This document shows positions 3,101 through 22,237 of a stretch of DNA of 64,000 bases, piece after piece. Every line of letters starts with the position of its first letter. Positions within the stretch are counted from its first letter, which is position 1. Origin of the DNA: Minisyncoccota bacterium (lineage in GTDB: Bacteria > Patescibacteriota > Minisyncoccia > JAHIHE01 > JAGLIN01); assembly GCA_041661265.1 (NCBI GenBank), contig JBAZUT010000001.1, forward strand, positions 129,854 to 193,853, in the 5' to 3' direction. Made by a program: the position numbers and the translations under genes. The notes beneath the pieces are model-generated. The model ran no database searches. It was not told the DNA's origin and saw only the letters and a program-made list of their open reading frames with translations.

Positions 3101-5032
3101 CGCCATCCACAAAATAGGATTAATAAAAATGAAAACAGTTTTTCCTCCGACAACAAGCTGGAAGATGAGAGCATGAACTCCGTTCTCGCGGAAAAAATCC
3201 ATAGGATGGCGCATATGCACCAGATAGGTCTGAATATAGCCTTTGATCCACCGCGACCGCTGTCTAAGCCAGTTCTTCAGATCGCTGTTCGCCTCTTCGA
3301 GAGTCACCGAATCTATAATGGTTGTTGTAAAACCATTTTTGAATATCCTCATTCCCAGATCGCAATCTTCCGTCACATTAAAAGGATCCCAGCCTTCAAG
3401 TTCAAGAAGGTCTTTCGTCCGGAAATGGTTGCTGGTTCCGCCAAGCGGGATGGAAGTGTTGATCGACTGCAGCCCCGGCAGGATCATATCGAACCAAAGA
3501 GAATATTCCACTGTGAAAAGCTTGGTCAGCAAATTCTGATTAGGATTGAAGTAATTGAGCTTGGCCTGCAGGCATCCGACCGACCGCGGAACTTTCTTGA
3601 AACCCAGATATGCTTTTTTGAGCTGCAAGGGATCGGGAATGTCTTCCGCATCGTATATTACCGTATATTCTCCTCTGGCAAAAGCCAGACCATAGTTGCA
3701 GGCTTTCGGCTTGGTCTTGGGAAGGGACTCGGGAACCACGATGATCCGCACCTGCGGCGGAAGGCCCATGTGTTCGGCCGTTTCGATGGTCGCCTTGTCG
3801 CTCTCCTCCAAGAGAAGCAAGATATCGAGCTTATCTTTCGGCCAATCGAGCTTTCCGATCGCATCCAGAAATCCCGGCAGCATATGCGCCTCCTTATAAA
3901 GCGGACAAAAAATTGTATAAACCGGAAGGGATTCTTTTTCCAACTCGTCCATCTCCCATTTTTCACTCTTTATTTCCGGAGGATCCTTCAGGCTTCTCAT
4001 GACAAGATAAAGATTGAATACTGTGTCAAGAAAGTAAATTGCGCTCAGCAGAGCAACGACCACCGAAAGGATCCCGATCGGATCGATATACAAGCCGGTC
4101 AAAAAGACAGCTATCGCCAATAAAGCGACGTTCCTCTGCCATGGAACAAAAGTTATAGCGGCTGAATATTTCTGATCCAGAGTTGTGTGAGTGATGAAGC
4201 GTTTTTTGCTGAAAGCCACCCCGGCGCCCATCATGGCAGATCCTTTTTTCGGAAAGATCGCGATCTGAGGTATTTTTTTGAATTTCAACTTTATGGCATT
4301 GGATCCGATCTCATATATGGCTTTTTGGAATTCTATCTTTGACTTTCCCTGCTTCCGGCTCGCAAAATCAATATCAACGCTTCCGATCATATATCCGTAA
4401 AATCTTGCCTTAAGTAAAAATTCAAGATCAAAGGTCCAGGGGGAAGGATCTATCTTGATCTCTTTGACAACCTCCTTTTTGAAAACTTTCATTCCGGCCT
4501 GCACGTCAAAATCAAATCCGTGCAACATTTTGGAGAAAAATAAATTGAAACCCCCGCTTATTATCCGCCGAACGGGGCTTATCGACCTCATGGTGCGATT
4601 TACCACGACGACATCACAGCCCGCTCTTATTTTTTCAACCATGTCGGGCAAAGCCTCGGGGGGATATTGGAGATCGGCGTCGAGGATCGCGATCAGGTCA
4701 AAATTAGCATAGGAAAAACCCTCGAGCAAAGAATGGGCCTTGCCCCTTTTGCCAAGCTTCGAATACAGGATGATCGGATAGCTGGCCGACAGCTGCCTGA
4801 TCATTTCACATGTGCCATCCGAAGAATGGTCATCGATGAATATGATCTCATAGACGATACCCGCCTTTTTCAAGGCACTATGAATGCGGCAGGCCAGTTC
4901 ATGAACATTGCCTTCTTCATTCAGAGTCGGAATTATTATTGATATGGAGTTGGAATTCATCGCTTCGGTATTATTGATAACTTTTTGCTTTCTGCAATAC
5001 ATCAAACACGACCATCTTGCATATTCCGTCAT
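161..5032 (-). CDS. multidomain polysaccharide synthase: GT2 (DPM1-like) + processive GT2 (QRxRW) + Wzx/MOP-like polytopic flippase domain + GT4
   Basis: 1623-aa ORF. The N-terminus has IIIPTLNEEGNV...DDHSSDGT...DADLQYPPE (GT2). A second GT2 has DAEDIPDP and a QRSRW motif. A central block of about 600 aa holds hydrophobic helices typical of polysaccharide-biosynthesis (Wzx) exporters. The C-terminus has a GT4 signature EGWGIVAIEAGACGTPVVASDVPG. Confidence 0.8.
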   Translation of the reverse strand: MTEYARWSCLMYCRKQKVINNTEAMNSNSISIIIPTLNEEGNVHELACRIHSALKKAGIVYEIIFIDDHSSDGTCEMIRQLSASYPIILYSKLGKRGKAHSLLEGFSYANFDLIAILDADLQYPPEALPDMVEKIRAGCDVVVVNRTMRSISPVRRIISGGFNLFFSKMLHGFDFDVQAGMKVFKKEVVKEIKIDPSPWTFDLEFLLKARFYGYMIGSVDIDFASRKQGKSKIEFQKAIYEIGSNAIKLKFKKIPQIAIFPKKGSAMMGAGVAFSKKRFITHTTLDQKYSAAITFVPWQRNVALLAIAVFLTGLYIDPIGILSVVVALLSAIYFLDTVFNLYLVMRSLKDPPEIKSEKWEMDELEKESLPVYTIFCPLYKEAHMLPGFLDAIGKLDWPKDKLDILLLLEESDKATIETAEHMGLPPQVRIIVVPESLPKTKPKACNYGLAFARGEYTVIYDAEDIPDPLQLKKAYLGFKKVPRSVGCLQAKLNYFNPNQNLLTKLFTVEYSLWFDMILPGLQSINTSIPLGGTSNHFRTKDLLELEGWDPFNVTEDCDLGMRIFKNGFTTTIIDSVTLEEANSDLKNWLRQRSRWIKGYIQTYLVHMRHPMDFFRENGVHALIFQLVVGGKTVFIFINPILWMATFSYFALYGLVGPMIEKLYPSVIFFMAATSLVFGNFLAMYYYMIGCAKRGQWLLIKYVFLVPFYWALMSVASVIAVYQLIMKPHFWEKTNHGLHLLKKTAEAPREILPVARKTAPAFNWEKVPHPEYAGMDHGSLLPEKPAAADLSAGRKRKRGFSWRKVPLGGYWKMLFEPKNIFIAAIMFSNVINFIFNIFLGRALSFENLALVTLVSSLWYLVSIFTSALSSTVNSETGYLSSSGKKESSVMFLEFVKSRGVLLSLIAAFAWVIAGQFLSEFFNIKDHYVLLLFAPVFIFGIISASNSGFLQGNLYFSSAAVVMAVEPISKLLFAMILVYSGASGWVYAAIPFSIMAAAIVSSYFIKRKNNFVPEKIKLNFPKKFYLSSLAAGISMMLFFSMDIILVKHYLPERMAGEYVMLSFVGKMIYFMGTLPIVFLIPLVSRNMGQKKDSKKIFSLVYISSFLLSILGVFFLGVMGRVTVPGIFGPKVSGILPYLNIYAISVLLLVITNVIVTYHLARKRYIYSFMSIMIPLGMVLGLSLYHNSIRDVVAVIFWSSCFGWVLMEAMSVLEGRAKFIRNNLNDLADVFKSGYPSVGPTGGDQKKILIYNWRDTRHEYAGGAEVYIQKIAENWVEDGHRVTIFCGNDSHSPRSEKVGGVEIIRRGGFYFVYFWAFVYYILRFRGKFDVIIDCENGIPFFAPLYAREPVFCLMHHVHQEVFRLSLSKHLSALACFLEKVLMPAVYKKVPFITISESSKKEIESLGLGKAGINIVNPGIELKCLMPGKKSERPVILYLGRLKAYKSVDILIRAFEVISRKDSNVSLVIAGSGEEEGKLKRLVKKLRLDGKTVRFAGKVSEREKISLLQKAWVLVNPSFMEGWGIVAIEAGACGTPVVASDVPGLRDSVKNFETGYLACYGDIGSFADCIHKIIQDNKLRRRMGIRGRLWAENFDWAKSSKLFFAIISSLQIRRIKDELAFYKNRVL

Positions 5033-5328
5033 GAGATAAACGTCCTATATCAAAAAAGGCTCGTAGCTACTAACCACCATTTAAGTGGCTAGAAATTACA
5101 AGCCCTCAGTTGGCTGTCATCCCGAATTTTCGGGATTCAGTTGGCTGCTAGGCAGTTTCGATATAACCGGAAATCGCCCGAAGTAGTTTTAAATATAACA
5201 GATTCAGTATATACGTGTCAATTCCAAACTGTTGACAAAAAACAGGGTAAAAATGACCGATGAACGATCACTTCCCCCTGCCTGATTCCAATAAATATGC
5301 CTGCCTCGCAAAGATTGGGATCCTTTAA

Positions 5329-6318
5329 TCAGACCCTGTCATATTGATCCAATATCCTGATGGTGTCATCAAGATGAGGAGTCGAATACTCATGCAGTAT
5401 CGTATTTTCAAGCGCAAATATGGCATGAGGCGTATTCGGTTTTATCCTGATCTTTTCATTCACCTTTAAATTGACTTCACTATCGTCGAATCTTACGACC
5501 GCTTCACCCTGCACTATATGCATCGTTTCGTCTTTCTTGAGATGCTTGTGATGCGATGTTCCTTCGCTTTTCATAAGATAGAGTTCCTTTGTCAGATAGT
5601 TTTCCGTATAGACCAATATCTTTTCATATCCCCAAGGCTTATCTTCTTTGTTCTCATATTCCTTTTTGACGATCTCAAGATCCTTGATAGAATCGACGGA
5701 TTGCCAAAAAACATCTTCTTTATAGAAATTCAAGAGTCCCGAAGAAGATATTTTGGGGAATGCGAGCTTCTCTATATCCCCTTCTTCATGTTGGAACAGA
5801 ATAGGCTTCAGCTCTTTGGATATTATATATATTCCCGCATTGATAAAATTGCTGAGCTTCGGTTTTTCTCTGAATCCTATGATCTTGCTCTCGGAAAGCT
5901 CCACTATCCCATAAGGGGAGATCAGCGGCGTTATGTACATCAGCATCTTATTCTTGTGATTATTCATCATCTCTTTAATATTCACATCGCAGACGATATC
6001 GCCGTTCCTTATGACATAATCATCGGAATCGAAATTTTTGAAGAGATTGTTGATGGCATAAAGGGTCCCGCGAGGCCTGTCTTCCACGAGATAGTCCACC
6101 TTCACTCCGTTCCAACAGCTCTGGAATCTTTCCTTTATTTTTTCATGCAGGTGACCGCAAAGAAGCACAGCCCTGTCGATGCCGGCATGCTTGAATTGCA
6201 GAAGCTGCCTGTCCAGGATCGTATAATTGTCTTTTATTTCGAGAAGCGGCTTGGGAATATGGTCCGTAAGCGGCTTCAGCCTTTTCCCGAAACCTCCGCA
6301 TAATATCGCCCCTATCAT
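5329..6318 (-). CDS. sugar-phosphate nucleotidyltransferase with C-terminal cupin domain (ManC-like mannose-1-phosphate guanylyltransferase / type II PMI-like)
   Basis: N-terminus MIGAILCGGFGKRLKPLT is a G-rich NTP-transferase loop. The C-terminal part (KPWGYEKIL...HKHLKKDETMHIVQGEAVV) resembles a cupin_2 barrel. Its start overlaps the GtrA stop by 4 bp. Confidence 0.75.
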   Translation of the reverse strand: MIGAILCGGFGKRLKPLTDHIPKPLLEIKDNYTILDRQLLQFKHAGIDRAVLLCGHLHEKIKERFQSCWNGVKVDYLVEDRPRGTLYAINNLFKNFDSDDYVIRNGDIVCDVNIKEMMNNHKNKMLMYITPLISPYGIVELSESKIIGFREKPKLSNFINAGIYIISKELKPILFQHEEGDIEKLAFPKISSSGLLNFYKEDVFWQSVDSIKDLEIVKKEYENKEDKPWGYEKILVYTENYLTKELYLMKSEGTSHHKHLKKDETMHIVQGEAVVRFDDSEVNLKVNEKIRIKPNTPHAIFALENTILHEYSTPHLDDTIRILDQYDRV

Positions 6319-10429: not shown

Positions 10430-11500
10430 ATGGGATTTTCAGTCGGGATAGTCGGGCTTCCGAATGTCGGAAAATCGACCCTATTCAAAACATTGACCAA
10501 AAAAGAAGTGGATATTTCCAATTATCCTTTCTGCACCATCGATCCGAATATCGGGATCGTCAAAGTTCCGGACGCAAGGCTTGAGAAGCTGGCTGTTTTT
10601 TCAAAAAGCAAGAAAATTGTGCCGACTGCGATCGAGTTCGTGGACATAGCAGGATTGGTGAAAGACGCGCACAAAGGAGAAGGCCTCGGAAACAAGTTCC
10701 TCGCCAACATCCGGGAAGTGGACATGATCGCGCACATCGTCCGAGGCTTTGAAGACGGAAACATCATCCATGTCGGAAATAAGGTGGATCCGAAGAACGA
10801 TATCGAAGTGATAAACTTAGAGTTAATACTGGCCGATCTTGAAACGGTCAACAAGATGCTAAGCAAGTCCGAAAGGGACGTGAAATCCGGAGACAAGGTC
10901 GCATTGATCCAAAAAAATATTTTGGCAAGATATAAAGAAGCGCTGGAAAAGGGTGAAATGGCAAACACGGTGCAAATTGAAGAAACAGAAAAAGAAGCGG
11001 CAAAAAGCATCAGCCTTCTCACCAACAAGCCGGTACTTTTTGTTGTGAATGTAAATGAAAATCAGAAGATAGACAAAGACAAGTTTTTGCCGGAAATAGA
11101 GAACAAGATCTTCGTTCCGATCAAATTCGAGCTGGACCTTGCGGAACTTGCTGAACCGGAAGCGATTGAATTCAGAAAAGAAGCGAACATGGACAAGAAC
11201 ATTTCAAGCCTCGACGAACTTATCACCAGATGCTATGAGCTTTTGGGGCTTATCACCTTCCTCACGACAGGAGAGGACGAGACTAGAGCCTGGACGATCA
11301 AAAAAGATTCGACCGCGCCTCAGGCGGGCCGCGCCATCCACACCGATTTTGAACAAAAGTTCATCCGCGCCAGCGTCATTAATTGGCAGAAACTTCTCGA
11401 AGCAGGCTCGGAAGCAAGCGCTGTGGAAAAGGGACTCCTGCGCACCGAAGGGAAAGAATATATCGTGCAGGATGGAGATGTGATTGAATTTAAAATCTAA
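10430..11500 (+). CDS. ychF: ribosome-binding ATPase YchF (Obg-family GTPase, TGS C-terminal domain)
   Basis: N-terminus GIVGLPNVGKSTLFKTLT (G1 motif). Also DIAGLV, NKVD, and a C-terminal TGS domain ...EYIVQDGDVIEFKI. Confidence 0.95.
   Translation: MGFSVGIVGLPNVGKSTLFKTLTKKEVDISNYPFCTIDPNIGIVKVPDARLEKLAVFSKSKKIVPTAIEFVDIAGLVKDAHKGEGLGNKFLANIREVDMIAHIVRGFEDGNIIHVGNKVDPKNDIEVINLELILADLETVNKMLSKSERDVKSGDKVALIQKNILARYKEALEKGEMANTVQIEETEKEAAKSISLLTNKPVLFVVNVNENQKIDKDKFLPEIENKIFVPIKFELDLAELAEPEAIEFRKEANMDKNISSLDELITRCYELLGLITFLTTGEDETRAWTIKKDSTAPQAGRAIHTDFEQKFIRASVINWQKLLEAGSEASAVEKGLLRTEGKEYIVQDGDVIEFKI
11418..11500 (+). repeat. ychF 3'-end segment (copy 1 of an 83-bp direct repeat; att-like)
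   Basis: About 88% identical to 11988-12071. The differences are almost all synonymous third-position changes. Confidence 0.8.
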
Positions 11501-11698: not shown

Positions 11699-11917
11699 AT
11701 GGGAAAAATTGATCTAAAAAATGTGGTCTGGAAAGAGGGCAAATACTATGTTGCTCAGTGTTTAAATGTGGATATTTCAAGTTTTGGAAAAACTAAAAAA
11801 GAAGCATTGATGAACTTAGATGAAGCTTTGGGACTATATTTTGAAGATAATAAAAAACCAAAAGTAACTAAGATAGAGAGACCGACGCTAGTAAAAATAT
11901 CCATCTGCCATGTCTAA
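11699..11917 (+). CDS. hicB: HicB-family antitoxin (UPF0150, RNase-H-like fold), short form
   Basis: WKEGKYYVAQCLNVDISSFGKTKKEALMNLDEALGLYFE matches the conserved HicB N-domain pattern. The stop overlaps the next ATG. Confidence 0.65.
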   Translation: MGKIDLKNVVWKEGKYYVAQCLNVDISSFGKTKKEALMNLDEALGLYFEDNKKPKVTKIERPTLVKISICHV

Positions 11918-12071
11918 ACTTTATTCTTCAAATTTGATCATCAAAGTCCTCCAAAAGCGAGGCTTTGTTTTTATCTCTCAGAAAGGAAGCGCCGTGGAAA
12001 AAGGACTCCTCCGCACCGAAGGAAAGGAATATATCGTGCAGGATGGAGATGTCGTAGAATTTAAAATATAG
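11911..12071 (+). pseudogene. hicA toxin remnant: N-terminal 27 codons of HicA fused in-frame to a duplicated ychF 3' end
   Basis: MSKLYSSNLIIKVLQKRGFVFISQKGS is HicA-like. It is followed directly by SAVEKGLLRTEGKEYIVQDGDVVEFKI*, a copy of the YchF C-terminus. At 53 aa it falls below the ORF-track cutoff. Confidence 0.6.
11988..12071 (+). repeat. ychF 3'-end segment, copy 2 (att-like junction)
   Basis: gccgtggaaaaaggactcctccgcaccgaaggaaaggaatatatcgtgcaggatggagatgtcgtagaatttaaaatatag, compared with 11418-11500. Confidence 0.8.
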
Positions 12072-12296: not shown

Positions 12297-13220
12297 ATGC
12301 CAATACCACAAAATTTTCAGACAATTATGCTCCCCTTCCTTGAAGCTGTTTCTGATGGGGAAAGCCATAATATGAATGAAATCCTAGATGCTTTAGCTGA
12401 TTATTTTAAGCTTACCGAAGAAGAAAAAACTAGAAAATATCCAACTGGAAGCGCCTATATCTTCAACAATAAGGCGCGATTTGCTCGTTTATATTTACTA
12501 AAAGCGGGTTTATTGGAATCAACTCAAAAAAGTTTTATAAAAATTTCTGATGATGGCGCAGGAGTTTTAGCAAAAAAACCGAAGCAGGTTAATTTAAAAT
12601 TGCTTGAAACGTATCCAAAATATATTGAATTTAAGCAAAGTTTAAAAGAGAGGAATCGTGAAAGAAAGGAAACAATTGTCGAAAATACAGAGATGGAATC
12701 ACAGACTCCTCATGAACTGATTGAGTATGGCTATCAGAAAATCAAAAAAGAACTTTCACAGGAAATATTAATTCAAACGAAGCAAAGCTCGCCGCAGTTT
12801 TTTGAAAAATTGGTTGTTGAATTGCTACTCAAGATGGGCTATGGCGGATCATTGAAAGACGCCGGAAAGGCAATTGGGCAAAGTGGTGATGGTGGTATTG
12901 ATGGCATTATTAAAGAAGATAAACTTGGACTAGATATTATATATATTCAGGCTAAACGATGAGAAAATTCCATTGGTGAACCCGTAATTAGAGATTTCGT
13001 CGGAAGTCTTGCAGGAAAACATGCGAATAAAGGCGTATTTATAACTACATCTCATTTTACAAGTGGTGCTACTGATTATGTTAAGAATATTCCTCATAAG
13101 GTTATTTTAATTGACGGTGAGATGCTGACCGACCTTATGATCGAAAATAACATTGGGGTATCAAATGTAAGCGCTTATGAAATTAAAAGAATAGATTCTG
13201 ATTATTTTATTGAAGAATAA
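12297..13220 (+). pseudogene. Mrr-family type IV restriction endonuclease (Mrr_N winged helix + Mrr catalytic domain) interrupted by one in-frame TGA
   Basis: The N-terminal domain ends ...GIDGIIKEDKLGLDIIYIQAKR. A TGA at 12960-12962 is followed in the same frame by ENSIGEPVIRDFVGSLAGKHANKGVFITTSHFTSGA... through a TAA at 13218-13220. A Trp (TGG) is expected at the stop position (QAKRW). Confidence 0.7.
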
Positions 13221-13232
13221 ATCCCTCCCCTA

Positions 13233-13756: not shown

Positions 13757-14242
13757 ATGAATAACAGAACGATTAAGCTATTATTTGTTTGCACCGATAA
13801 CATAGGCCGAAGCCTGATGGCCGAATATCTTTTGAGAAACTGGCTGGAAAATAACAACCGGCATGACATCGAGGTTTCCTCTTGCGGGACAAATGCGACA
13901 AGCGACACCAGCTCATTTTGCATGGATCACATTGGCAAATTGGATGAAATGGGAATAGATGCATCGCGGCACAAAAGAACCCAAATATCAAAAGAAATAT
14001 TGGCACGAAGCGACATCATCATTGCCATGGATGAATCCCACCGAGACTGGGTACGGGAGAAATTCAACAAAGAAGTCATGTTGTATAATGAAATATGCAA
14101 GAATGAAAAAACTTCGATCAGGATCAATCCGCCCGGCTCAGCCGGTCCGCTATCCAATCGATTGTTGAAGGTGTTTGAGTATATAGATAAGTCCATTCCT
14201 GACTTAGTTACTTCAATTGATAAGATAAAAATAAACTTATGA
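13757..14242 (+). CDS. low-molecular-weight protein-tyrosine phosphatase / ArsC-type arsenate reductase family
   Basis: LLFVCTDNIGRSLMAE contains the CX5R(S/T) P-loop. At 161 aa it is a typical LMW-PTP length. Confidence 0.8.
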   Translation: MNNRTIKLLFVCTDNIGRSLMAEYLLRNWLENNNRHDIEVSSCGTNATSDTSSFCMDHIGKLDEMGIDASRHKRTQISKEILARSDIIIAMDESHRDWVREKFNKEVMLYNEICKNEKTSIRINPPGSAGPLSNRLLKVFEYIDKSIPDLVTSIDKIKINL

Positions 14243-15033
14243 CGAAATTCGCCATATTAACCGATATTCATCTGGGCCCGGAAGGCCGCTTCAGGGGCAT
14301 TCTTCGCAAAATAAACAAGGATGTGAAAATATTTTTGGACGATTTTGTCGAGGAAATGAATGGGAATGTAAAACCTGAATTCACGGTTGTCCTCGGAGAT
14401 CTGGTCGAGGACGACAATGAGGCCAATGACAGGAATAATGTCGGCTACATCGTAAAGTTGCTGAAAAAGTTGAAGTGTCCTGTCTATTATGCTGCCGGAA
14501 ACCATGATCTTAGGAACATTTCAGAAAAAGATCTGGCGGAATTGTTTCATTATGAAAAGCTATACTATTCATTTGATTCCGGCAATCTTCATTTCATCGT
14601 TCTATTTTCGAGGGCATCGAAAGATGAAACGATCAGGATCTCGGATGAACAAAAGGAATGGCTTCAGAAGGATCTGGATTCGACGGACAGAAAATGCGTT
14701 GTTTTCGTCCATCATGGATTAGCCGACCAGGACCTGACGGGAAACCCATGGTTTGAAAAAAAACCTGAATACTGCCTTATTGAAAACAGAAAAGAGATCA
14801 GGCACATAGTCTCCGAATCAAAAAAAGTTATTGCGGTTTTCAACAGCCACTTGCATTGGGACAAGAAAGACTCTCATGACGGTATCCCCTATTTCACGAT
14901 CCAGTCTTTGGTTGAAAATGAGGGCGACAATGGATTAGCAAGCGAAACGCACGCAGTGGTCAATATTGTTGACGATAAGGTTGACGTTGAGGTGAAGGGT
15001 AATTATGCAAAAAACTTTTCACATCAAAGCTGA
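14239..15033 (+). CDS. calcineurin-like metallophosphoesterase
   Basis: AILTDIHLGPEG, VLGDLVED and AAGNHD match the phosphoesterase motifs D-x-H, GD and GNH(D/E). Overlaps the upstream gene by 4 bp. Confidence 0.8.
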   Translation: MTKFAILTDIHLGPEGRFRGILRKINKDVKIFLDDFVEEMNGNVKPEFTVVLGDLVEDDNEANDRNNVGYIVKLLKKLKCPVYYAAGNHDLRNISEKDLAELFHYEKLYYSFDSGNLHFIVLFSRASKDETIRISDEQKEWLQKDLDSTDRKCVVFVHHGLADQDLTGNPWFEKKPEYCLIENRKEIRHIVSESKKVIAVFNSHLHWDKKDSHDGIPYFTIQSLVENEGDNGLASETHAVVNIVDDKVDVEVKGNYAKNFSHQS

Positions 15034-15090
15034 GGAGCAGCGAACCTGCTCTGGACATGAAAAACGCGTCCAAATCATTAATATCATACA

Positions 15091-15274
15091 TATGCTATAT
15101 CTCATCGGGGGTGCAGCGCGGAGTGGCAAAACAAATCTTTCAAAAAGACTGCTGACTGGAAAAAGTATCCCCTACTTTTGCATTGATTATCTTGTCAGCG
15201 CCATCGATCGAACACTGCACAACAAACCCTCTTTCCGTATTTCGATGTATCAAATGATTTCTCAGAAAAGATAG
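15091..15274 (+). pseudogene. 5' fragment of a P-loop kinase gene (paralogous copy of the 17857 gene, first ~48 codons)
   Basis: MLYLIGGAARSGKTNLSKRLLTGKSIPYFCIDYLVSAIDRTLHNKPSF is followed by an unrelated 12 codons and a stop. About 145 nt are near-identical to 17857-18001, including an 88-nt perfect run. Confidence 0.7.
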
Positions 15275-15385
15275 ATGAGATACTTACCAATATTTGATTC
15301 AAATAGTTTGAGCAGCATAGGATTATTTTCGTTCTATTAGATTACCACAGCTATGAGATGTCATTAATGAAATTATAAATATAAC

Positions 15386-15706
15386 ATGATAATAAAAAAC
15401 CAAAGAACGATTCAGAAAATAATAGGTCCAATGATCATAAATGAATATAAAATAAATTCTTATTTTAGCGCCGCTCTGGTTGAGATTAATGGAGCTCACG
15501 GAAAACTTAAGTGCATCGGGGAAGATAGAATTTATTTTATTCTAGACGGTGAAGGAATGTTCATTATAAACGATGAGGAAAGTAACATCAGTCAAAATGA
15601 TTTGATATTTGTACCAAAGAATACGCCCTATAATATTATTGGCAAACTGAGATATCTTTTGATTTGCTCTCCTAAGTTTAATCCCAAAAATGATGTGTTT
15701 CTATGA
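15386..15706 (+). CDS. cupin-domain protein
   Basis: 106 aa. The ...AHGKLKCIGEDRIYFILDGEGMFIINDEE...LIFVPKNTPYNI pattern fits a cupin_2 beta-barrel. Function unknown. Confidence 0.5.
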   Translation: MIIKNQRTIQKIIGPMIINEYKINSYFSAALVEINGAHGKLKCIGEDRIYFILDGEGMFIINDEESNISQNDLIFVPKNTPYNIIGKLRYLLICSPKFNPKNDVFL

Positions 15707-15786
15707 TGCAAGTCCTGCAAGTGTATTAAAAATGCCCTGCAGTTTACTGCAGGGTTATTTTGTTTTAGATTTTCTTTTTATCCAAT

Positions 15787-16818
15787 TTAAAGTTCCTTTA
15801 CATATTCTCTCGTATTTTCCAAAAGTTCAAATAGTTCAACGAGATACGCTTTGGGATCGGATTCGTTTAATCTATCAACACGATCCAGGCCTTTCAATTT
15901 ATATGAAGTGATCAAGTCCAGTGTTTCATCAATGCACCCGAGCCGGATCAATGTTTTAGTCAGATCCAGCAGCTCTTCCCCTGAAGCTTTTTTATTGCCC
16001 AGCAATTTTCTTATTTGAGCTTTATCACTCTCTTCTTTTTCCATTGCACAGATGATCGGGTATGTCCATATTCCCTTTCTTACGTCTTCGAAAGAAATCC
16101 TCGATAGTGCCTTAGAGTTTTTGCGCATGATTTCTTCCGGCAAAAAACACGTTAGATCGTTTCTCGCCATTACGCCAGTCCCGAATACCCTTCCTATCTC
16201 GCCAAACTGTTCGACCTCGCGATCACTGGAATCCGCTGCTATGGCAGACGTCTTAGCCATAGTTTCAAACATCACCCCGCAAATCTTATAACATCTTTCG
16301 ATATATTTTGCAGCTGTTGTGTCATCCTTCATATCCTCGTTTATTCCTTCGCCTACCCACAGAATTTCCCACATTTGGTTTGCCAGAGTTAATATTTTTA
16401 ATTTGGAACAATCCTTGATCTTTAAATCCGATAACAGCTTGATAGAGATAAATGCCTGCAAACTTCCGGCGATAATCCCGTAATTTAGGCCGAATTCTTC
16501 ATGTGTAGCAATTTTTCCTTCTCTCTCTGGTTGACTATCAATGATATCATCAAGCACATACGTAGAGATGGTTGATAATTCCATAAAACCAAGCAACGGA
16601 AGAATATCGTGCCAGTTTTTACCACCGCAATATTCATAGATCAGCCTGCCTAATGTAGCGCGCAACTTTGGCTTATTTCTCCTTAAACTAACCAGACGAG
16701 ACACTGACTCATGCAATAGCCTGTCTTCTTTTTCTAGTTCTTCAAGCTTTTCAATCAGATATTTATCGATATCCTCTGCGGTATTCTTCATTAAATTAAA
16801 CAGTTGTCTTTTCTTCAT
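15787..16818 (-). CDS. isoprenoid synthase-fold protein (polyprenyl synthetase / class I terpenoid synthase-like)
   Basis: First Asp-rich motif is YVLDDIIDSQPEREGK (DDxxD followed by R/E-GK, as in trans-IPPS). The second Asp-rich motif is replaced by GVMARNDLTCFLPEE. The start is placed at the ATG with an AAGGAGG RBS (16816-16818) rather than the upstream ATG. Confidence 0.55.
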   Translation of the reverse strand: MKKRQLFNLMKNTAEDIDKYLIEKLEELEKEDRLLHESVSRLVSLRRNKPKLRATLGRLIYEYCGGKNWHDILPLLGFMELSTISTYVLDDIIDSQPEREGKIATHEEFGLNYGIIAGSLQAFISIKLLSDLKIKDCSKLKILTLANQMWEILWVGEGINEDMKDDTTAAKYIERCYKICGVMFETMAKTSAIAADSSDREVEQFGEIGRVFGTGVMARNDLTCFLPEEIMRKNSKALSRISFEDVRKGIWTYPIICAMEKEESDKAQIRKLLGNKKASGEELLDLTKTLIRLGCIDETLDLITSYKLKGLDRVDRLNESDPKAYLVELFELLENTREYVKEL

Positions 16819-17035
16819 TTGTTTTCCTCCTTTGTTTGTGTAAGCCACGAATGACCTTTGTATCGTGACTGTTTAACATACCACTTCTATAATATTTGTC
16901 TTAATTTCAATAAAAATTAAATCCTCATGGGCTATTTTTTATAATAATGGCCAAAAATCCTTTGTTTGCTTGACATTTTTGCTCCATGCGCTATACTTTT
17001 ATGTTGTCTAAAATAGTAGACATTTTTAATCAACG

Positions 17036-17782
17036 ATGAGCATGAATATAGAAAATATTTTGCAAACTGTCGGCTTCTCGAGAAAAAAAACTAAGATATA
17101 TTTAGCCATTTTGGAGCTGGGAGAAGCCTCGGTAATAGAGATCGCGAAAAAAGCCGGCATCAAACGGACTACGGTTTATAATATCCTTCCGGAATTGATA
17201 ATCGACGGCCTGGTAAAGAAATCTGTTAAAAACAAAAAGGGATTCTTCTTCATAGAAGACCCCTCTCTAATCAAGACAAGTCTGGAAGAAAAAATGGGCA
17301 CAATCGAAAAATCCCTGCCTGAACTGAGAGCCATGCAAAACACTATCCCCTCCAAACCAAGGATAACTTTTTATGAAGGAGGGGGTGGAGCAAAAGCTCT
17401 ATATCGGGATACTTTGGACAGTCTTACGCCAGGCGATACGCTTTTGAGCTATACTGGACTTACCGATTTTTACAAACTTATTCCCAAAGATTTTTCAGAG
17501 TGGTATATTAAAGAGAGAATCAAAAGAAAAATAAGGATAGAAGTAATCGCACTGAGATCAAAAATAACCGATGAATGGCAAAAAAATGCGGCAAGAGAGC
17601 TTCGCGAGATCAAAATAGTTAATAACTCCGACTTTCGATTCGACGGAGACACTGAGATATACGGTAATAAAATAGCTCTCATATCTTATAAAGAGAACTT
17701 CATGGGAGTTATAATAGAAAGCAAAGAAATAAGCCAAATGTTGAGAATGGCTTTTCGTCTTATGTGGAATTCGCTCGAATAA
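17036..17782 (+). CDS. TrmB-family transcriptional regulator
   Basis: N-terminal wHTH TKIYLAILELGEASVIEIAKKAGIKRTTVYNILPELIIDGLV, with a C-terminal TrmB-like domain. Confidence 0.75.
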   Translation: MSMNIENILQTVGFSRKKTKIYLAILELGEASVIEIAKKAGIKRTTVYNILPELIIDGLVKKSVKNKKGFFFIEDPSLIKTSLEEKMGTIEKSLPELRAMQNTIPSKPRITFYEGGGGAKALYRDTLDSLTPGDTLLSYTGLTDFYKLIPKDFSEWYIKERIKRKIRIEVIALRSKITDEWQKNAARELREIKIVNNSDFRFDGDTEIYGNKIALISYKENFMGVIIESKEISQMLRMAFRLMWNSLE

Positions 17783-17856
17783 TGTTCCCTAACGATTAAC
17801 TACTACGGGGCTTACTCCTATGACTTTTATAAGGTATTGTTAAAATAATAATTCAT

Positions 17857-18405
17857 ATGATATATCTCATCGGAGGAGCTGCGCGGAGTGGCAAAACAAT
17901 TCTCTCAAAAAGACTGCTGACTGGAAAAAGTATCCCCTACTTTTGCATTGATTATCTTGTCAGCGCCATCGATCGAACACTGCACAACAAACCTTCTTTT
18001 GATGCTGCAATGAAGATTCAGCCTCAGCTGGAATCAATGATCAGAAATATCACAGAAATTGAACCGGACTATATCGTTGAGGGAGACAAAATATTGCCGG
18101 AACTTGCAAGCAGGCTTTCAAAAGAATATCCGAACCAAATTATTTCTTGTTTTCTCGGTTATGCGTCCGCCGACCCTTCAATCAAAATGGAAGAGATAAA
18201 ACAAAATCCTGGTCCCATAAATAATTGGACAAAGAACTCATCGAACGAGGAGCTTATGCAATTAATTGCAGAAATGACCGATTATAGCGCCTTTATAAAA
18301 AAAGAATGCAATAAATATGATATTCCGTACTTTGATGTATCGAATAATTTCTCAAAGAACATAGACTTGGCTTTTCAATATTTATCCATTAACAAATCCA
18401 CATGA
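17857..18405 (+). CDS. P-loop NTPase / small-molecule or polynucleotide kinase family protein
   Basis: Walker A IGGAARSGKT. 182 aa. The stop overlaps the Nudix start (ATGA). Confidence 0.65.
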   Translation: MIYLIGGAARSGKTILSKRLLTGKSIPYFCIDYLVSAIDRTLHNKPSFDAAMKIQPQLESMIRNITEIEPDYIVEGDKILPELASRLSKEYPNQIISCFLGYASADPSIKMEEIKQNPGPINNWTKNSSNEELMQLIAEMTDYSAFIKKECNKYDIPYFDVSNNFSKNIDLAFQYLSINKST

Positions 18406-18821
18406 GCGAACAAATATATCCCGAACCGACATGCGGCGCGCTGATCTTTAATCCAAAAGGACAGATATTTTTGATGAGATCCTATAAGTGGAAAGATAAA
18501 TATGTCATTCCCGGAGGCCACATCGAACTGGGAGAAAAAATGCCGGACACAGTGAAAAGAGAGGTCAAGGAGGAAACCGGAATGGATATACGCGACATAG
18601 AATTTATCTGCTTCCAGGAGTTTATTTTCGGTGATGAGTGCTGGAAAAAGAAACACTTTATTTTCTTTGATTTTGCCTGCGAAACAGATTCTGCAGAGGT
18701 CACGCTTAACTCCGAAGGGCAAGAGTTTATCTGGACCGGTTTGCAGGAGGCCCTGAAACTGCCAGTGGAACCATACACAATGCATGTTATCAAAGAATAC
18801 ATGAAACTTCGCGTGAAATGA
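18402..18821 (+). CDS. Nudix hydrolase
   Basis: Nudix box GGHIELGEKMPDTVKREVKEETG (GX5EX7REUXEEXGU). Confidence 0.85.
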   Translation: MSEQIYPEPTCGALIFNPKGQIFLMRSYKWKDKYVIPGGHIELGEKMPDTVKREVKEETGMDIRDIEFICFQEFIFGDECWKKKHFIFFDFACETDSAEVTLNSEGQEFIWTGLQEALKLPVEPYTMHVIKEYMKLRVK

Positions 18822-18886
18822 TCATTTTGCCAAAACAAAAACCTGCATAATCTGTTCGTTCAGAGTTCTGCAGGCAACTGATTCTT

Positions 18887-19084
18887 TTATGTTCTACTCC
18901 TTAGGGGCGGCATGTAGGTCACAACTATCAATGCGACCGCCGGAATGATCTCAGAGATCACTTTATATCGTTTTATGTGATCAAATTGGATCAAACCCGC
19001 AATCACAGGCAAAGCCACTGCCGCCACGATCATAAAGCCGACAAGTCTTAACATATTTTCTTTAGACGTTCCATACAACTTCAT
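18887..19084 (-). CDS. small membrane protein (2 TM), hypothetical
   Basis: A GGAGGA RBS lies 7 nt upstream of the ATG on the minus strand. The product is hydrophobic and 65 aa. Confidence 0.4.
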   Translation of the reverse strand: MKLYGTSKENMLRLVGFMIVAAVALPVIAGLIQFDHIKRYKVISEIIPAVALIVVTYMPPLRSRT

Positions 19085-19351
19085 ATTTCAATCCTCCGGA
19101 TTTCATTCGCTTTGTTCGTTTCACGCAAATAAAATCACGCAAAATGTATTTATATTATATCATAAATATAATCACGTGTCAATAAGGGCTTAATTCAACT
19201 TTTGCTCTTGCCAAAAAGAAAAGCCCGTGCTAACATAAAAACACTTAGATATATGGCGTATATGACATACTTTATACGTCCAAAGGTCCATGTATATCTG
19301 TTTTTATTGTGTTCGGTGAACTTTTAATCAATCAAATTTAATCAAAGAAAA

Positions 19352-20179
19352 ATGACAAATTACGAAGTCTTGTACATTCTGCCCTCAAGCCTCACAAGCA
19401 AGGAAATTGCCGATAATTTCAAGGATATAAGAGAGAATATCGAAAAATTGGGCGCTAAAATGCTTGTAACTCTCGTTGACCACCCATTCCTCGTAAAAGC
19501 GGAAGCTTCAAGAGAGGAAGAAACCGAGGAATTGAAAGGCCTCACTATAGTAAAAAAGAAACTTGCTTATCCCATCAAAAAGAATAAGATCGGTTTCTAT
19601 TGCCTTATTAATTTCAGTATCGAGGGAGCGGACGTTCATAAGATCGACAGATATCTCGCTCTCAACAACACCGTCCTTAGATACATCATCGTCCAAGCTG
19701 ATCCTATGACCGTGGATGAGCTCGCCCTGCTTCATAAACTGTTCGCAAGAAAAAGAGCCGAGCAGGAAAAAGAAGAAAAGGACAGAGAGAAAGAAGAAAG
19801 AGAAGCCAGAGAAGAAAAGAAGGAAGCAAGGATCGAAAAACCGGTGTTTAAAGAAATGAAGAAAGAAGAAGCAAAGGAAGAAGTCAAAGAAGAAGCTGCT
19901 CCGAAAGAAGAAAAGAAGGAAGAAAAAGAAGAAGTTGAGGCCAAAAAAGAGAAGGAAAAGAAAGAAGTGAAGAAAGAAAAAGAAGAAGAGAAAGCTCCCA
20001 AGAAGGAAAAGAAAGAAGTGAAGAAAGAAAAGACAGCTCCTAAGGAGGAAAAGTCCGAAGAGTCCGAAGAAGAACCTAAAGAAGAGAAAAAGAAAGACAG
20101 CGGAAAGAGGAAAAAGAAGATCAAGCTGGAAGACCTTGAAGACAAGCTTGATGAGATCCTCGAAGATACGATGATATAA
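19352..20179 (+). CDS. rpsF: 30S ribosomal protein S6 with ~150-aa Lys/Glu-rich C-terminal extension
   Basis: S6 core YEVLYILPSSL...KLAYPIKKNKIGFYCLINFSIEGADVHKIDRYLALNNTVLRYIIV, followed by KEEKKEEKEE repeats. Classic rpsF-ssb-rpsR order. Confidence 0.85.
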   Translation: MTNYEVLYILPSSLTSKEIADNFKDIRENIEKLGAKMLVTLVDHPFLVKAEASREEETEELKGLTIVKKKLAYPIKKNKIGFYCLINFSIEGADVHKIDRYLALNNTVLRYIIVQADPMTVDELALLHKLFARKRAEQEKEEKDREKEEREAREEKKEARIEKPVFKEMKKEEAKEEVKEEAAPKEEKKEEKEEVEAKKEKEKKEVKKEKEEEKAPKKEKKEVKKEKTAPKEEKSEESEEEPKEEKKKDSGKRKKKIKLEDLEDKLDEILEDTMI

Positions 20180-21181: not shown

Positions 21182-22237
21182 TTACAATGCCGCATTCTTC
21201 ACTTCTTCTTTTACGGCTTTGTATATTCCGGCGACCAGCTCACTCGTCAGCTTTGGATTTTCTTTGAGGTATTTCCTGCTTGCTTCATATCCCTGTCCGA
21301 GTTTTTCGGATCCGTAGTTATACCAGGCGCCGCCCTTGGAAACTATATTGTATTTTACCGCTGTGTTCAGAACGTCTCCGAAATATGCTATCCCCTCGTT
21401 GTGCATCAGATCGAATTCGGCGATCTTGAATGGAGGAGCGATCTTGTTCTTGACCACTTTGGCCTTGACCCTGCTTCCGATCACATTGTCGCCCTGCTTT
21501 ATTTGGGCGGACCTTCTCACTTCTATCCTCACCGAAGAATAGAATTTGAGCGCGTTCCCTCCGGTCGTCGTTTCGGGATTTCCGAATACGACTCCGATCT
21601 TCATCCTGATCTGGTTTATGAAAATAACGGTGGCATTCGATTTGTGGACGATGCTGGTGAGTTTCCTGAGCGCCTGGCTCATGAGGCGGGCCTGAAGACC
21701 CATATGAGAGTCGCCCATCTCACCTTCGATCTCCGCTTTCGGAGTCAGCGCCGCCACCGAGTCGATCACGATCAGATCCACTGCGCCGGACCTGACCAGA
21801 GCTTCAACGATCTCGAGAGCCTGCTCTCCGCTGTCCGGCTGCGAGATGATAAGATCGTTTATCTTGACGCCTATCCTTTTGGCATATTCCGGATCAAGAG
21901 CATGCTCCGCATCCACAAACGCCGCTATGCCTTTCTTTTTCTGGAGCTCCGCGATGACATGCAGTGTCAGCGTTGTCTTTCCGCTGGCTTCCGGACCATA
22001 CACCTCGATTATCCTTCCTTTCGGGATCCCTCCGCCGAGAGCTATATCCAGCGAGATCGATCCTGTCGGAATAAAATCGATATCCATGGTCCTTGCTTCT
22101 CCAAGCTTCATGATGGACCCTTCTCCGAACCTGCCCTTTATTTCATCAAGCGTGTCATTGATGATCTTGTCTTTCTTGTCTTTTTCTTCTGTCGACTTCT
22201 TTTCTTCCGCCAGCTTCTTTTTTTCTTCTTTTGCCAT
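21182..22237 (-). CDS. recA: recombinase RecA (with ~25-aa KE-rich N-terminal extension)
   Basis: Walker [21 protein letters not shown], and L2 region [35 protein letters not shown]. Confidence 0.95.

Follow-up and report, generated by a model that had tools for sequence, protein, structure and literature searches.

A cupin, synthase and TrmB insert between a decayed and an intact kinase copy in a Candidatus Paceibacterota genome: junction anatomy and possible origin by homologous crossover

We analyzed a 64,000-nt stretch (hereafter the window) of a metagenome-assembled genome of Candidatus Paceibacterota, a lineage of the Candidate Phyla Radiation (CPR, or Patescibacteria), in which the 5' end of a rare P-loop kinase gene occurs twice. 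Three foreign genes, encoding a small cupin, a polyprenyl-synthase-like protein and a TrmB regulator, fill the ~2.6 kb between the two copies. The left copy is a kinase pseudogene, the right copy belongs to an intact gene, and a relative carries the kinase locus without the three genes. The explanation that we favor, at a probability of roughly 0.45, is recombination of the RecA type, most simply a Campbell-type single-crossover insertion of DNA that carried a decayed kinase allele, within a hypervariable region between ychF and rpsF.

The duplicated kinase gene and its relatives

The features on which the argument depends are the following.

14239..15033, + strand: metallophosphoesterase gene, left flank and recurring anchor (Pfam PF00149, E = 2e-12)
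15071..15091, + strand: native kinase upstream sequence, matching the relative L008 and kept before the dead left copy
15083..15234, + strand: left repeat copy, kinase position -9 to codon 48, the 5' piece of the pseudogene
15140..15228, + strand: identical 89-nt tract, a putative crossover or gene-conversion tract
15233..15297, + strand: kinase 3'-end remnant, diverged and frame-shifted, closing at its own TGA
15386..15706, + strand: small cupin gene (Cupin_2, E = 2e-5, under the Pfam cut-off), outside the segment shared with the relative L009
15724..17786: horizontally exchanged unit made up of terminator, synthase, TrmB and the divergent promoter region between these two genes
15734..15755: bidirectional terminator hairpin between cupin and synthase, left edge of the segment shared with L009
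15787-16818, minus strand: polyprenyl-synthase-like gene (Pfam PF00348, 80 bits against a cut-off of 27)
17036-17782, + strand: TrmB regulator gene (Pfam PF01978), with a promoter-like site at 16970-16997
17787..17847, + strand: 61-nt spacer from the TrmB stop to the right repeat, the new upstream region of the intact kinase
17848..17999, + strand: right repeat copy, 152 nt, the 5' part of the intact kinase
17857..18405, + strand: intact P-loop kinase gene, 182 amino acids (aa), Walker A motif GGAARSGKT, an uncharacterized, rare family of sporadic distribution
18402..18821, + strand: Nudix hydrolase gene (PF00293), right flank and recurring anchor, overlapping the kinase stop (ATGA)

A repeat search of the window returned the two copies, 15083-15234 and 17848-17999, as a direct repeat of 152 nt with 94% identity and a spacing of 2765. 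Beginning at its ATG (15092), the left copy duplicates the first 48 codons of the kinase gene at 17857, as a first-pass annotation made from the letters alone had recognized for positions 15091-15236. The perfect stretch that it put at 88 nt exists and measures 89 nt (15140-15228 = 17905-17993, the longest exact run in the repeat), and it was right that the differences are mostly synonymous: seven substitutions separate 15092-15234 from the intact kinase, five synonymous and two nonsynonymous (L2I, N15I). It also had the fragment diverge abruptly and stop, which is not what happens. From 15233 the sequence runs into a remnant of the kinase 3' end, with about 65 nt (15233-15297) aligning to 18323-18384 at ~77% identity; the local alignment scores 44 against a shuffle mean of 17.9 (standard deviation 2.4), and 0 of 2000 shuffles scored as high. 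Read in its own frame the remnant gives PYFDVSNDFSEKIDEILTNI, where the intact kinase has PYFDVSNNFSKNIDLAFQYLSINKST. Since this frame-shifted 3' remnant follows the 5' piece, 15092-15297 is an internally deleted kinase pseudogene from which ~325 nt are gone, not a bare 5' fragment, and the 60-codon open reading frame (ORF) at 15092 should be annotated as a pseudogene remnant. The two pieces meet at 15234/15235 with a 2-nt microhomology (TT). A continuation of the left remnant into a Nudix remnant was also considered and rejected (181/1000 shuffles, not significant).

Divergence between the copies is mosaic. The 5' piece of the left copy differs from the intact kinase at 7/146 positions and the 3' remnant at 10/44 (Fisher p = 0.001); a left copy composed of 5' and 3' ends with such unequal divergence is not explained by a simple target duplication. 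Within the 5' piece the differences are clustered: the first 48 nt hold six of them, the following 89 none and the last 6 one (p = 0.007). When the 9 upstream nucleotides are included, the copies differ at 8/57 (14%), 0/89 and 11/50 positions (~22%, the sum of 1/6 and 10/44), with no statistical difference between the two diverged parts (p = 0.32). Both window copies differ from the L008 orthologue at 13 of the 89 positions within the identical tract, which is thus not intrinsically invariant; for 89 identical bases the chance probability is 8e-5 if divergence is 10% and 6e-8 if it is 17%. The pattern fits what would be expected of two kinase alleles ~15-20% apart that meet in a crossover, heteroduplex or conversion tract ~90 nt long.

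L008, a 1081-nt Logan contig, represents the same locus without the insert. It opens with the initial 72 nt of the phosphoesterase gene (86% identical to window 14247-14318), followed by ~35 nt and then by a kinase with 76% aa and 81% nucleotide identity to that of the window. This kinase overlaps the start of a Nudix gene, which ends after ~44 codons and gives way to the rpsF upstream region (87% identical to 19205-19298). L008 is therefore an empty site, in which phosphoesterase stub, kinase, Nudix stub and rpsF upstream region are contiguous with none of the three genes between them. A blastn match joins L008 108-259 to window 15071-15222 and begins 21 nt 5' of the ATG; in a three-way alignment, the left copy agrees with L008 at 17/19 upstream positions and the intact copy at ~11-12/19. 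The 61-nt spacer before the right copy had zero matches in any fetched relative locus. Both neighbors of the L008 kinase are cut to 5' stubs (L008 1-72, 72 nt of the phosphoesterase gene; 674-809, ~44 codons of the Nudix gene). Deletions have made genes decay throughout this region, and in L008 the kinase is the one spared. What looked like a hairpin at the L008 Nudix break was dropped as largely native Nudix coding sequence.

A close syntenic relative is L030, a 19.6-kb contig from the JGI collection, with aa identities to the window of 96% for RecA, 95% for S18, 90% for ychF, 89% for FtsK and 87% for PGM. Its ychF-rpsF interval holds orf155, a cation-efflux gene, phosphoesterase, SDH-alpha, radical-SAM, nitroreductase, Nudix and orf109, and contains no kinase, cupin, synthase or TrmB. 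A candidate kinase remnant 5' of the L030 Nudix gene was rejected, as just the last 20 nt match (66/1000 shuffles, not significant). Relative to L008 and L030, the genes between the kinase copies are an insertion, as had been proposed from the sequence of the window, and the expected empty site, with a phosphoesterase (here a stub) directly before the kinase, is the one seen in L008. The accompanying proposal that phosphoesterase-kinase-Nudix is the ancestral order is borne out in L008 only: in L030 and in a further relative, L028, what comes after the phosphoesterase stop is a hairpin repeat and then other genes, not the kinase, and the low GC content at third codon positions (GC3) of the kinase (0.39) and its sporadic distribution qualify the proposal further.

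L009, a 5.9-kb Logan contig, comes from a distant relative (RecA 69% aa identity, S18 50%, SSB 48%, S6 undetected). Its positions 3712-5775 correspond to window 17786-15724 at 79.8% DNA identity over 2071 nt, with aa identities of 84% for TrmB and 78% for the synthase, and the intergenic promoter DNA between these two genes is 84% identical over 101 nt. RecA DNA identity between the two genomes is 72%, and blastn fails to detect most core genes. In L009 the synthase and TrmB genes stand directly between the ychF stop and rpsF, without cupin, phosphoesterase, kinase or Nudix, and the terminator hairpin of 15734-15755 is present there, adjoining ychF. Because the pair is more conserved than RecA between these genomes and is absent from the close relative L030, synthase and TrmB (15724-17786) must have moved horizontally between Paceibacterota lineages; the cupin and the kinase 3' remnant are outside the exchanged unit.

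Composition also sets the insert apart. GC3 is 0.31 in the cupin, the lowest value, and 0.41 in both synthase and TrmB, below the flanking phosphoesterase (0.49) and Nudix (0.51) genes and the core genes ychF, PGM, RecA, SSB and FtsK (0.52-0.61). The values of the insert (0.31-0.41), set against those of flanks and core (0.49-0.61), agree with an insertion.

Insertion by crossover and its alternatives

In the favored explanation, the ancestor would have had the kinase 3' of the phosphoesterase and directly 5' of Nudix, as in L008. Composite foreign DNA would have entered by homologous recombination inside the first ~150 nt of this resident kinase, as a molecule that was circular or had been circularized after uptake. 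It would have brought in the 61-nt spacer that follows TrmB, a decayed kinase allele (5' part joined to 3' part), the cupin, the terminator, the synthase and TrmB. The incoming kinase allele would have been ~15-20% diverged and internally deleted, and the crossover would have fallen within the 89-nt tract, whose identity would be a crossover or heteroduplex scar. The left copy would then consist of the resident upstream sequence and first ~48 nt fused to the dead 3' remainder of the incoming allele, yielding the pseudogene; in the right copy, the 61-nt upstream sequence and the first ~48 nt would be of incoming origin and the remainder resident, yielding the intact gene that overlaps Nudix as in L008. 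The same repeats would permit the insert to loop out again, and the locus may be a site of ongoing excision.

We take as support for a single crossover the direct repeats with their 89-nt core on either side of the insert, as well as the placement of the copies: the left one follows the phosphoesterase with upstream sequence of the L008 type, and the right one is contiguous with Nudix and rpsF. The repeats derive from the target (152 nt, 89 of them exact), and the host has a recA gene (RecA_N and RecA_C domains, 21182-22237) 3 kb from the insert. Recombinase genes, tRNA genes, Rfam families and terminal inverted repeats were all unfound at the insert, which we count in favor of a crossover that used no recombinase of its own. 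A single crossover accounts for all features in one event. As for direction, synthase and TrmB sit inside an L008-like phosphoesterase-kinase-Nudix order, and so insertion into the kinase region is the parsimonious choice; the opposite direction would require two separate insertions, one on either side of synthase and TrmB.

The closest known parallel is experimental. In E. coli conjugation, a circle carrying a lacZ gene fragment integrated by a single crossover and left duplications of 109-950 bp flanking the insert (PMC3240628). Here, too, the insert lies between direct repeats of part of its target (152 bp), no dedicated recombinase is involved, one complete gene copy remains and the repeats make the event reversible. 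The present case differs in that it is natural and comes from an uncultured CPR bacterium, that the incoming allele would have been diverged and deleted, so that the left copy is a mosaic of 5' and 3' parts, and that the circle is one we infer. The event is of a known kind and belongs to ordinary genome plasticity, with no new class of system; it is unusually detailed here for a CPR genome. It would provide a nucleotide-level example of gene gain in ultra-small, uncultured Patescibacteria, in which an intragenic homologous crossover left a dead mosaic copy behind.

Several points weigh against this interpretation. Over the first 48 nt, the left copy has 9 differences to L008 and the right copy 8, which leaves the resident half undecided there; the assignment of resident halves consequently rests mainly on ~20 nt of upstream sequence. 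Both L008 and L009 are short contigs from single runs, and L008 could equally be a secondary loss through recombination between the repeats, leaving the direction of the event unproven. Searches of JGI metagenomes, IMG/VR, plasmids and phages turned up neither a circular molecule nor a donor with the insert, and neither donor order (TrmB then kinase, or kinase then cupin) was observed in the searched loci. The GC3 of the insert is uneven between the cupin and the other two genes, which suggests more than one event; given this heterogeneous composition, the insert was probably assembled in more than one step.

Less probable than the single crossover, and still a serious competitor, is a history with two old kinase copies, the resident one and a second that arrived with or near TrmB. 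The left copy would have lost ~325 nt by microhomology deletion, and its 5' piece would later have been converted over ~90-140 nt. The unequal divergence of the two pieces (p = 0.001) agrees with such a history, and the identity tract ends at the deletion junction, where homology ends; a microhomology deletion is seen nearby (197 nt between 13-nt repeats, window versus a second assembly, L001), and the low GC3 of the kinase resembles that of the insert. Set against this are the at least three events needed (acquisition, deletion and conversion) where one crossover would do, the position of the second copy before Nudix, exactly as in L008, for which it offers no explanation of its own, and the lack of any genome with two full kinases in a family of 35 members among 5.8 billion proteins, whose examined loci are single-copy. 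We consider it improbable that the duplication arose by illegitimate insertion, in which a linear fragment ending in a donor kinase 3' end next to the cupin was attached by illegitimate or microhomology joins at +146 and -9 of the resident kinase and duplicated 155 nt; the setting could have been a replication fork or sister chromosomes. The microhomology of only 2 nt at 15234/15235 and the foreign look of the 3' remnant are in its favor, and over 143 nt the 5' piece has 7 differences to the intact kinase of the window and 26 to L008, as a young duplicate would. A simple young duplicate would not have its seven differences clustered, six in 48 nt and none in 89 (p = 0.007), and the fragment would have had to end in a kinase 3' end by coincidence. 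Homology-facilitated illegitimate recombination in transformation likewise uses a short homologous anchor in a resident gene, and the internal junction here has its 2-nt microhomology; the classical form differs in that the recipient DNA lying between anchor and illegitimate joint is lost, not duplicated (PMC3240628).

The first-pass annotation had instead seen an element that duplicates a gene end upon integration, and had suggested that the three genes might form a mobile unit. Models for such elements exist: e14 and phage 21 at icd, with a 163-bp icd' pseudogene, and Rac at the 5' end of ttcA supply surrogate gene ends (PMC6379469). An element of this type at the kinase 5' end, which lost its integrase and left three cargo genes, would match the locus in several respects, namely gene-end direct repeats of similar size that bound the insert, a displaced fragment that faces the intact gene across the insert, a slightly altered N-terminus (here L2I), an empty site in L008 and a second gene-end duplication in the window, that of ychF (88 nt at 87.5%). 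Those elements encode an integrase and recur at the same attachment site, whereas a Pfam scan detected no integrase, excisionase or transposase domain in the three ORFs of the insert, and none of 10 further window ORFs tested has a recombinase domain. The window holds no tRNA or Rfam family, so there is no RNA integration target. A kinase 3' remnant, moreover, is not expected of a left attachment site. Recurrence is limited to synthase and TrmB, which in L009 stand at the ychF/rpsF junction without a kinase; the complete unit was not found elsewhere. Of 10 loci that the synthase alignment recovered from JGI metagenomes, most were archaeal or short, and TrmB, cupin and kinase were missing from all; searching IMG/VR with the cupin and with the kinase alignment gave no matches, nor did blastn of 15083-18001 against PLSDB plasmids and GenBank phages, and a scan of GTDB genomes with TrmB gave only 45-54% homologues (L013-L017), none near a synthase, kinase or cupin. 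We therefore regard a site-specific element as very unlikely. A transposon or insertion sequence fares no better, with no transposase, no inverted repeats found at the insert ends and a duplication that, at 152 nt, is not short. Nor does an integron cassette fit, as no hairpin repeat flanks the kinase copies or the three genes and no integrase is present among the ORFs tested. Cupin, synthase and TrmB are not a mobile element or unit, and the insert is a recombination scar in a flexible region.

An assembly artefact, in which two strains of unlike gene order were merged through common kinase 5' sequence, is hardly credible. The window does come from a short-read metagenome assembly, and two assemblies differ at strain level by 197 nt some 3 kb upstream. 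The ENA contig L001, a separately named assembly, is nevertheless 100% identical to the window over 16.4 kb around the locus, both kinase copies included; the exact repeat of 89 nt is shorter than the k-mer of 141 given in the name of that contig and shorter than typical reads; and the private substitutions and 3' remnant of the left copy occur nowhere else on the contig.

Genes of the insert and of the kinase locus

Pfam matches confirmed the labels first given to the metallophosphoesterase, polyprenyl synthase, TrmB and Nudix genes and, weakly, to the cupin, which is missing from L009 and had zero relatives in the IMG/VR scan. The synthase has the first Asp-rich motif (VLDDIID), and its second DDxxD motif is replaced throughout the family by an invariant R-N-D-x-T; against NCBIfam equivalogs it scores far under the cut-offs (60 versus 500 bits). 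After L009, its closest relatives (65-68% aa identity) are encoded on archaeal contigs (L010-L012, L018-L020), beside genes for S6e, L24e, L7Ae and an intein-containing IF2. The comparisons suggest a non-canonical isoprenoid enzyme that may have passed from archaea to CPR and is here paired with an archaeal-type TrmB regulator. An archaeal-like synthase and TrmB pair is seen to move between distant Paceibacterota lineages.

For the kinase, the label has its support in the fold: there were zero sequence-family matches in Pfam, NCBIfam or PDB, and the AlphaFold (AF2) model has a mean confidence (pLDDT) of 92.9. The top PDB matches in Foldseek are shikimate, gluconate and adenylate kinases (TM 0.5-0.65, probability 1.0), and the Walker A residues G7, G12 and K13 are invariant in 30 homologues. 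The model confidently predicts the fold of a P-loop small-molecule or nucleoside monophosphate kinase. The kinase protein of the window is identical to an NCBI entry that bears the name Candidatus Paceibacterota. GC3 of the L008 kinase (0.38) is close to that of the window copy. Because of this low GC3 and the rare, patchy family, the kinase is taken to be an older acquisition in its own right. Its distant homologues (L002-L007, L031) occur in unrelated contexts without Metallophos or Nudix genes and were set aside as a guide to ancestral order.

A promoter and terminator scan detected no terminator after TrmB, a weak promoter-like site before the intact kinase (17820-17849) and the strong one of TrmB at 16970-16997. 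Stripped of its native upstream sequence, the intact kinase is probably now read through from the TrmB promoter.

Homology of the window to L028 and to L030 stops at the same point, 15028, in the end of the metallophosphoesterase gene, whose product is 82% identical in L030 (in syntenic position) and 93% identical in L028. Across many CPR lineages and DPANN and other archaea its identity ranges from 60 to 93%, with 71% in Nanoarchaeota, 61% in Diapherotrites and 59% in Bathyarchaeia. Such unusually high cross-domain conservation suggests that the gene may be exchanged frequently. The Nudix protein is 76% identical in L030 and 90% identical over the 42 aa kept in L008. It matches the PADLOC candidate defense family PDC-S07 (E = 1e-11), maybe through generic Nudix similarity alone. 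At this locus PADLOC reported just this candidate and Mrr (type IV restriction); kinase and cupin are not known defense genes.

The variable interval between ychF and rpsF

The remaining features of the interval and its repeats are listed below.

10430-11500: ychF, left boundary gene of the variable interval
After ychF, in order: HicAB-like pair with an 88-nt duplicate of the ychF 3' end, disrupted Mrr gene, Zn-ribbon ORF
13757-14242: low-molecular-weight phosphatase gene, 5' of the metallophosphoesterase gene
Between Nudix and rpsF-ssb-rpsR, with recA next, minus strand: 65-aa ORF
19205..19298, + strand: conserved rpsF upstream region, right boundary of the interval, 87% identical to L008 987-1081
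11545-11562, 12087-12112, 12186-12215, 13275-13320, 13345-13376 (inverted) and 5115-5136: hairpin repeats in the window
L030 5273-5300, 5321-5352, 7810-7840 and ~12982-13006; L028 930-957; L009 5826-5846: hairpin repeats in relatives

Collinearity with L030 is found at the rpsF upstream region, from L030 position 13027. Judged by these comparisons, the ychF-rpsF interval is a hypervariable accessory region with phosphoesterase and Nudix as its recurring genes and with cargo between these two that differs in each relative. For Patescibacteria, genes for competence and homologous recombination are reported as common, and so are genomic islands and flexible stretches bounded by core genes, acquired through natural transformation and homologous recombination (PMC12455944). 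Our interval resembles such islands in its variable genes between the anchors ychF and rpsF-ssb-rpsR-recA, its atypical composition, its restriction enzyme, toxin-antitoxin genes and pseudogene remnants, and the exchange between related lineages; it differs in that the published islands have the resolution of prediction software, and here junctions at nucleotide level point to an intragenic crossover.

The 3' end of ychF (11413-11500) is duplicated at 11983-12070, over 88 nt with 87.5% identity, and the duplicate bounds a HicB(DUF7387)/HicA module. Compared with the ychF end of L030, the two copies show 85% and 89% identity. This duplication has no identical tract and is older, or more diverged, than that of the kinase. 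Where the window has 11978-11990, L001 has 197 extra nucleotides (L001 3925-4134) between 13-nt direct repeats, TCAGAAAGGAAGC; these complete the HicA toxin gene and extend the ychF 3' duplicate. The window carries a microhomology-deletion variant in which the N-terminus of HicA is joined to the C-terminal peptide of ychF (ORF 11910-12071).

One could extend the recombinase-free explanation of the kinase locus to the ychF 3' end that bounds the HicAB module 3 kb upstream, an extension that is unlikely. In its general form, which we hold to be just as doubtful, homology to gene ends would be a recurrent vehicle of cassette gain and loss in CPR, with pieces of DNA that carry decayed fragments of resident genes inserting and looping out by RecA crossover. 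If this were true, such crossovers, together with the ATTCCC-N-GGGAAT hairpins at other cassette borders, would build the ychF-rpsF array, and genomes that live by scavenging DNA would have a separate way of assembling islands, one that needs no recombinase.

These hairpins form a family of short repeats of the form (AT)GTCATTCC(C/G)-loop-(C/G)GGAATC, for example GATGTCATTCCCGCGAAAGCGGGAATC. They occur at cassette borders of the ychF-rpsF interval, right after ychF and, in L028 and L030, right after the phosphoesterase stop; in both L030 and L009 one directly follows the ychF stop. None of the ATTCCC-N-GGGAAT type, which the window has at 11.5-13.4 kb, stands beside the kinase copies or the three inserted genes. 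As borders of the insert they were rejected, with none at 15237-15385, 17783-17856 or 18822-19204 and just the 8-mer ATGTCATT at 15358. The core, ATTCCC-N8-GGGAAT, presumably resembles the dRS3 repeat of Neisseria.

In the Mrr type IV restriction gene (12297-13221; PADLOC mREase_IV, E = 6e-44), one in-frame TGA at 12960-12962 breaks the reading frame, which then continues as far as 13221 through the remaining part of the catalytic domain; this is probably a recent pseudogene or a recoding site. Ribosomal protein S6 (19352-20179) carries a long Lys/Glu-rich C-terminal extension of imperfect repeats (19764-19991), and its length is 275 aa in the window, 256 aa in L030 and 201 aa in L009.

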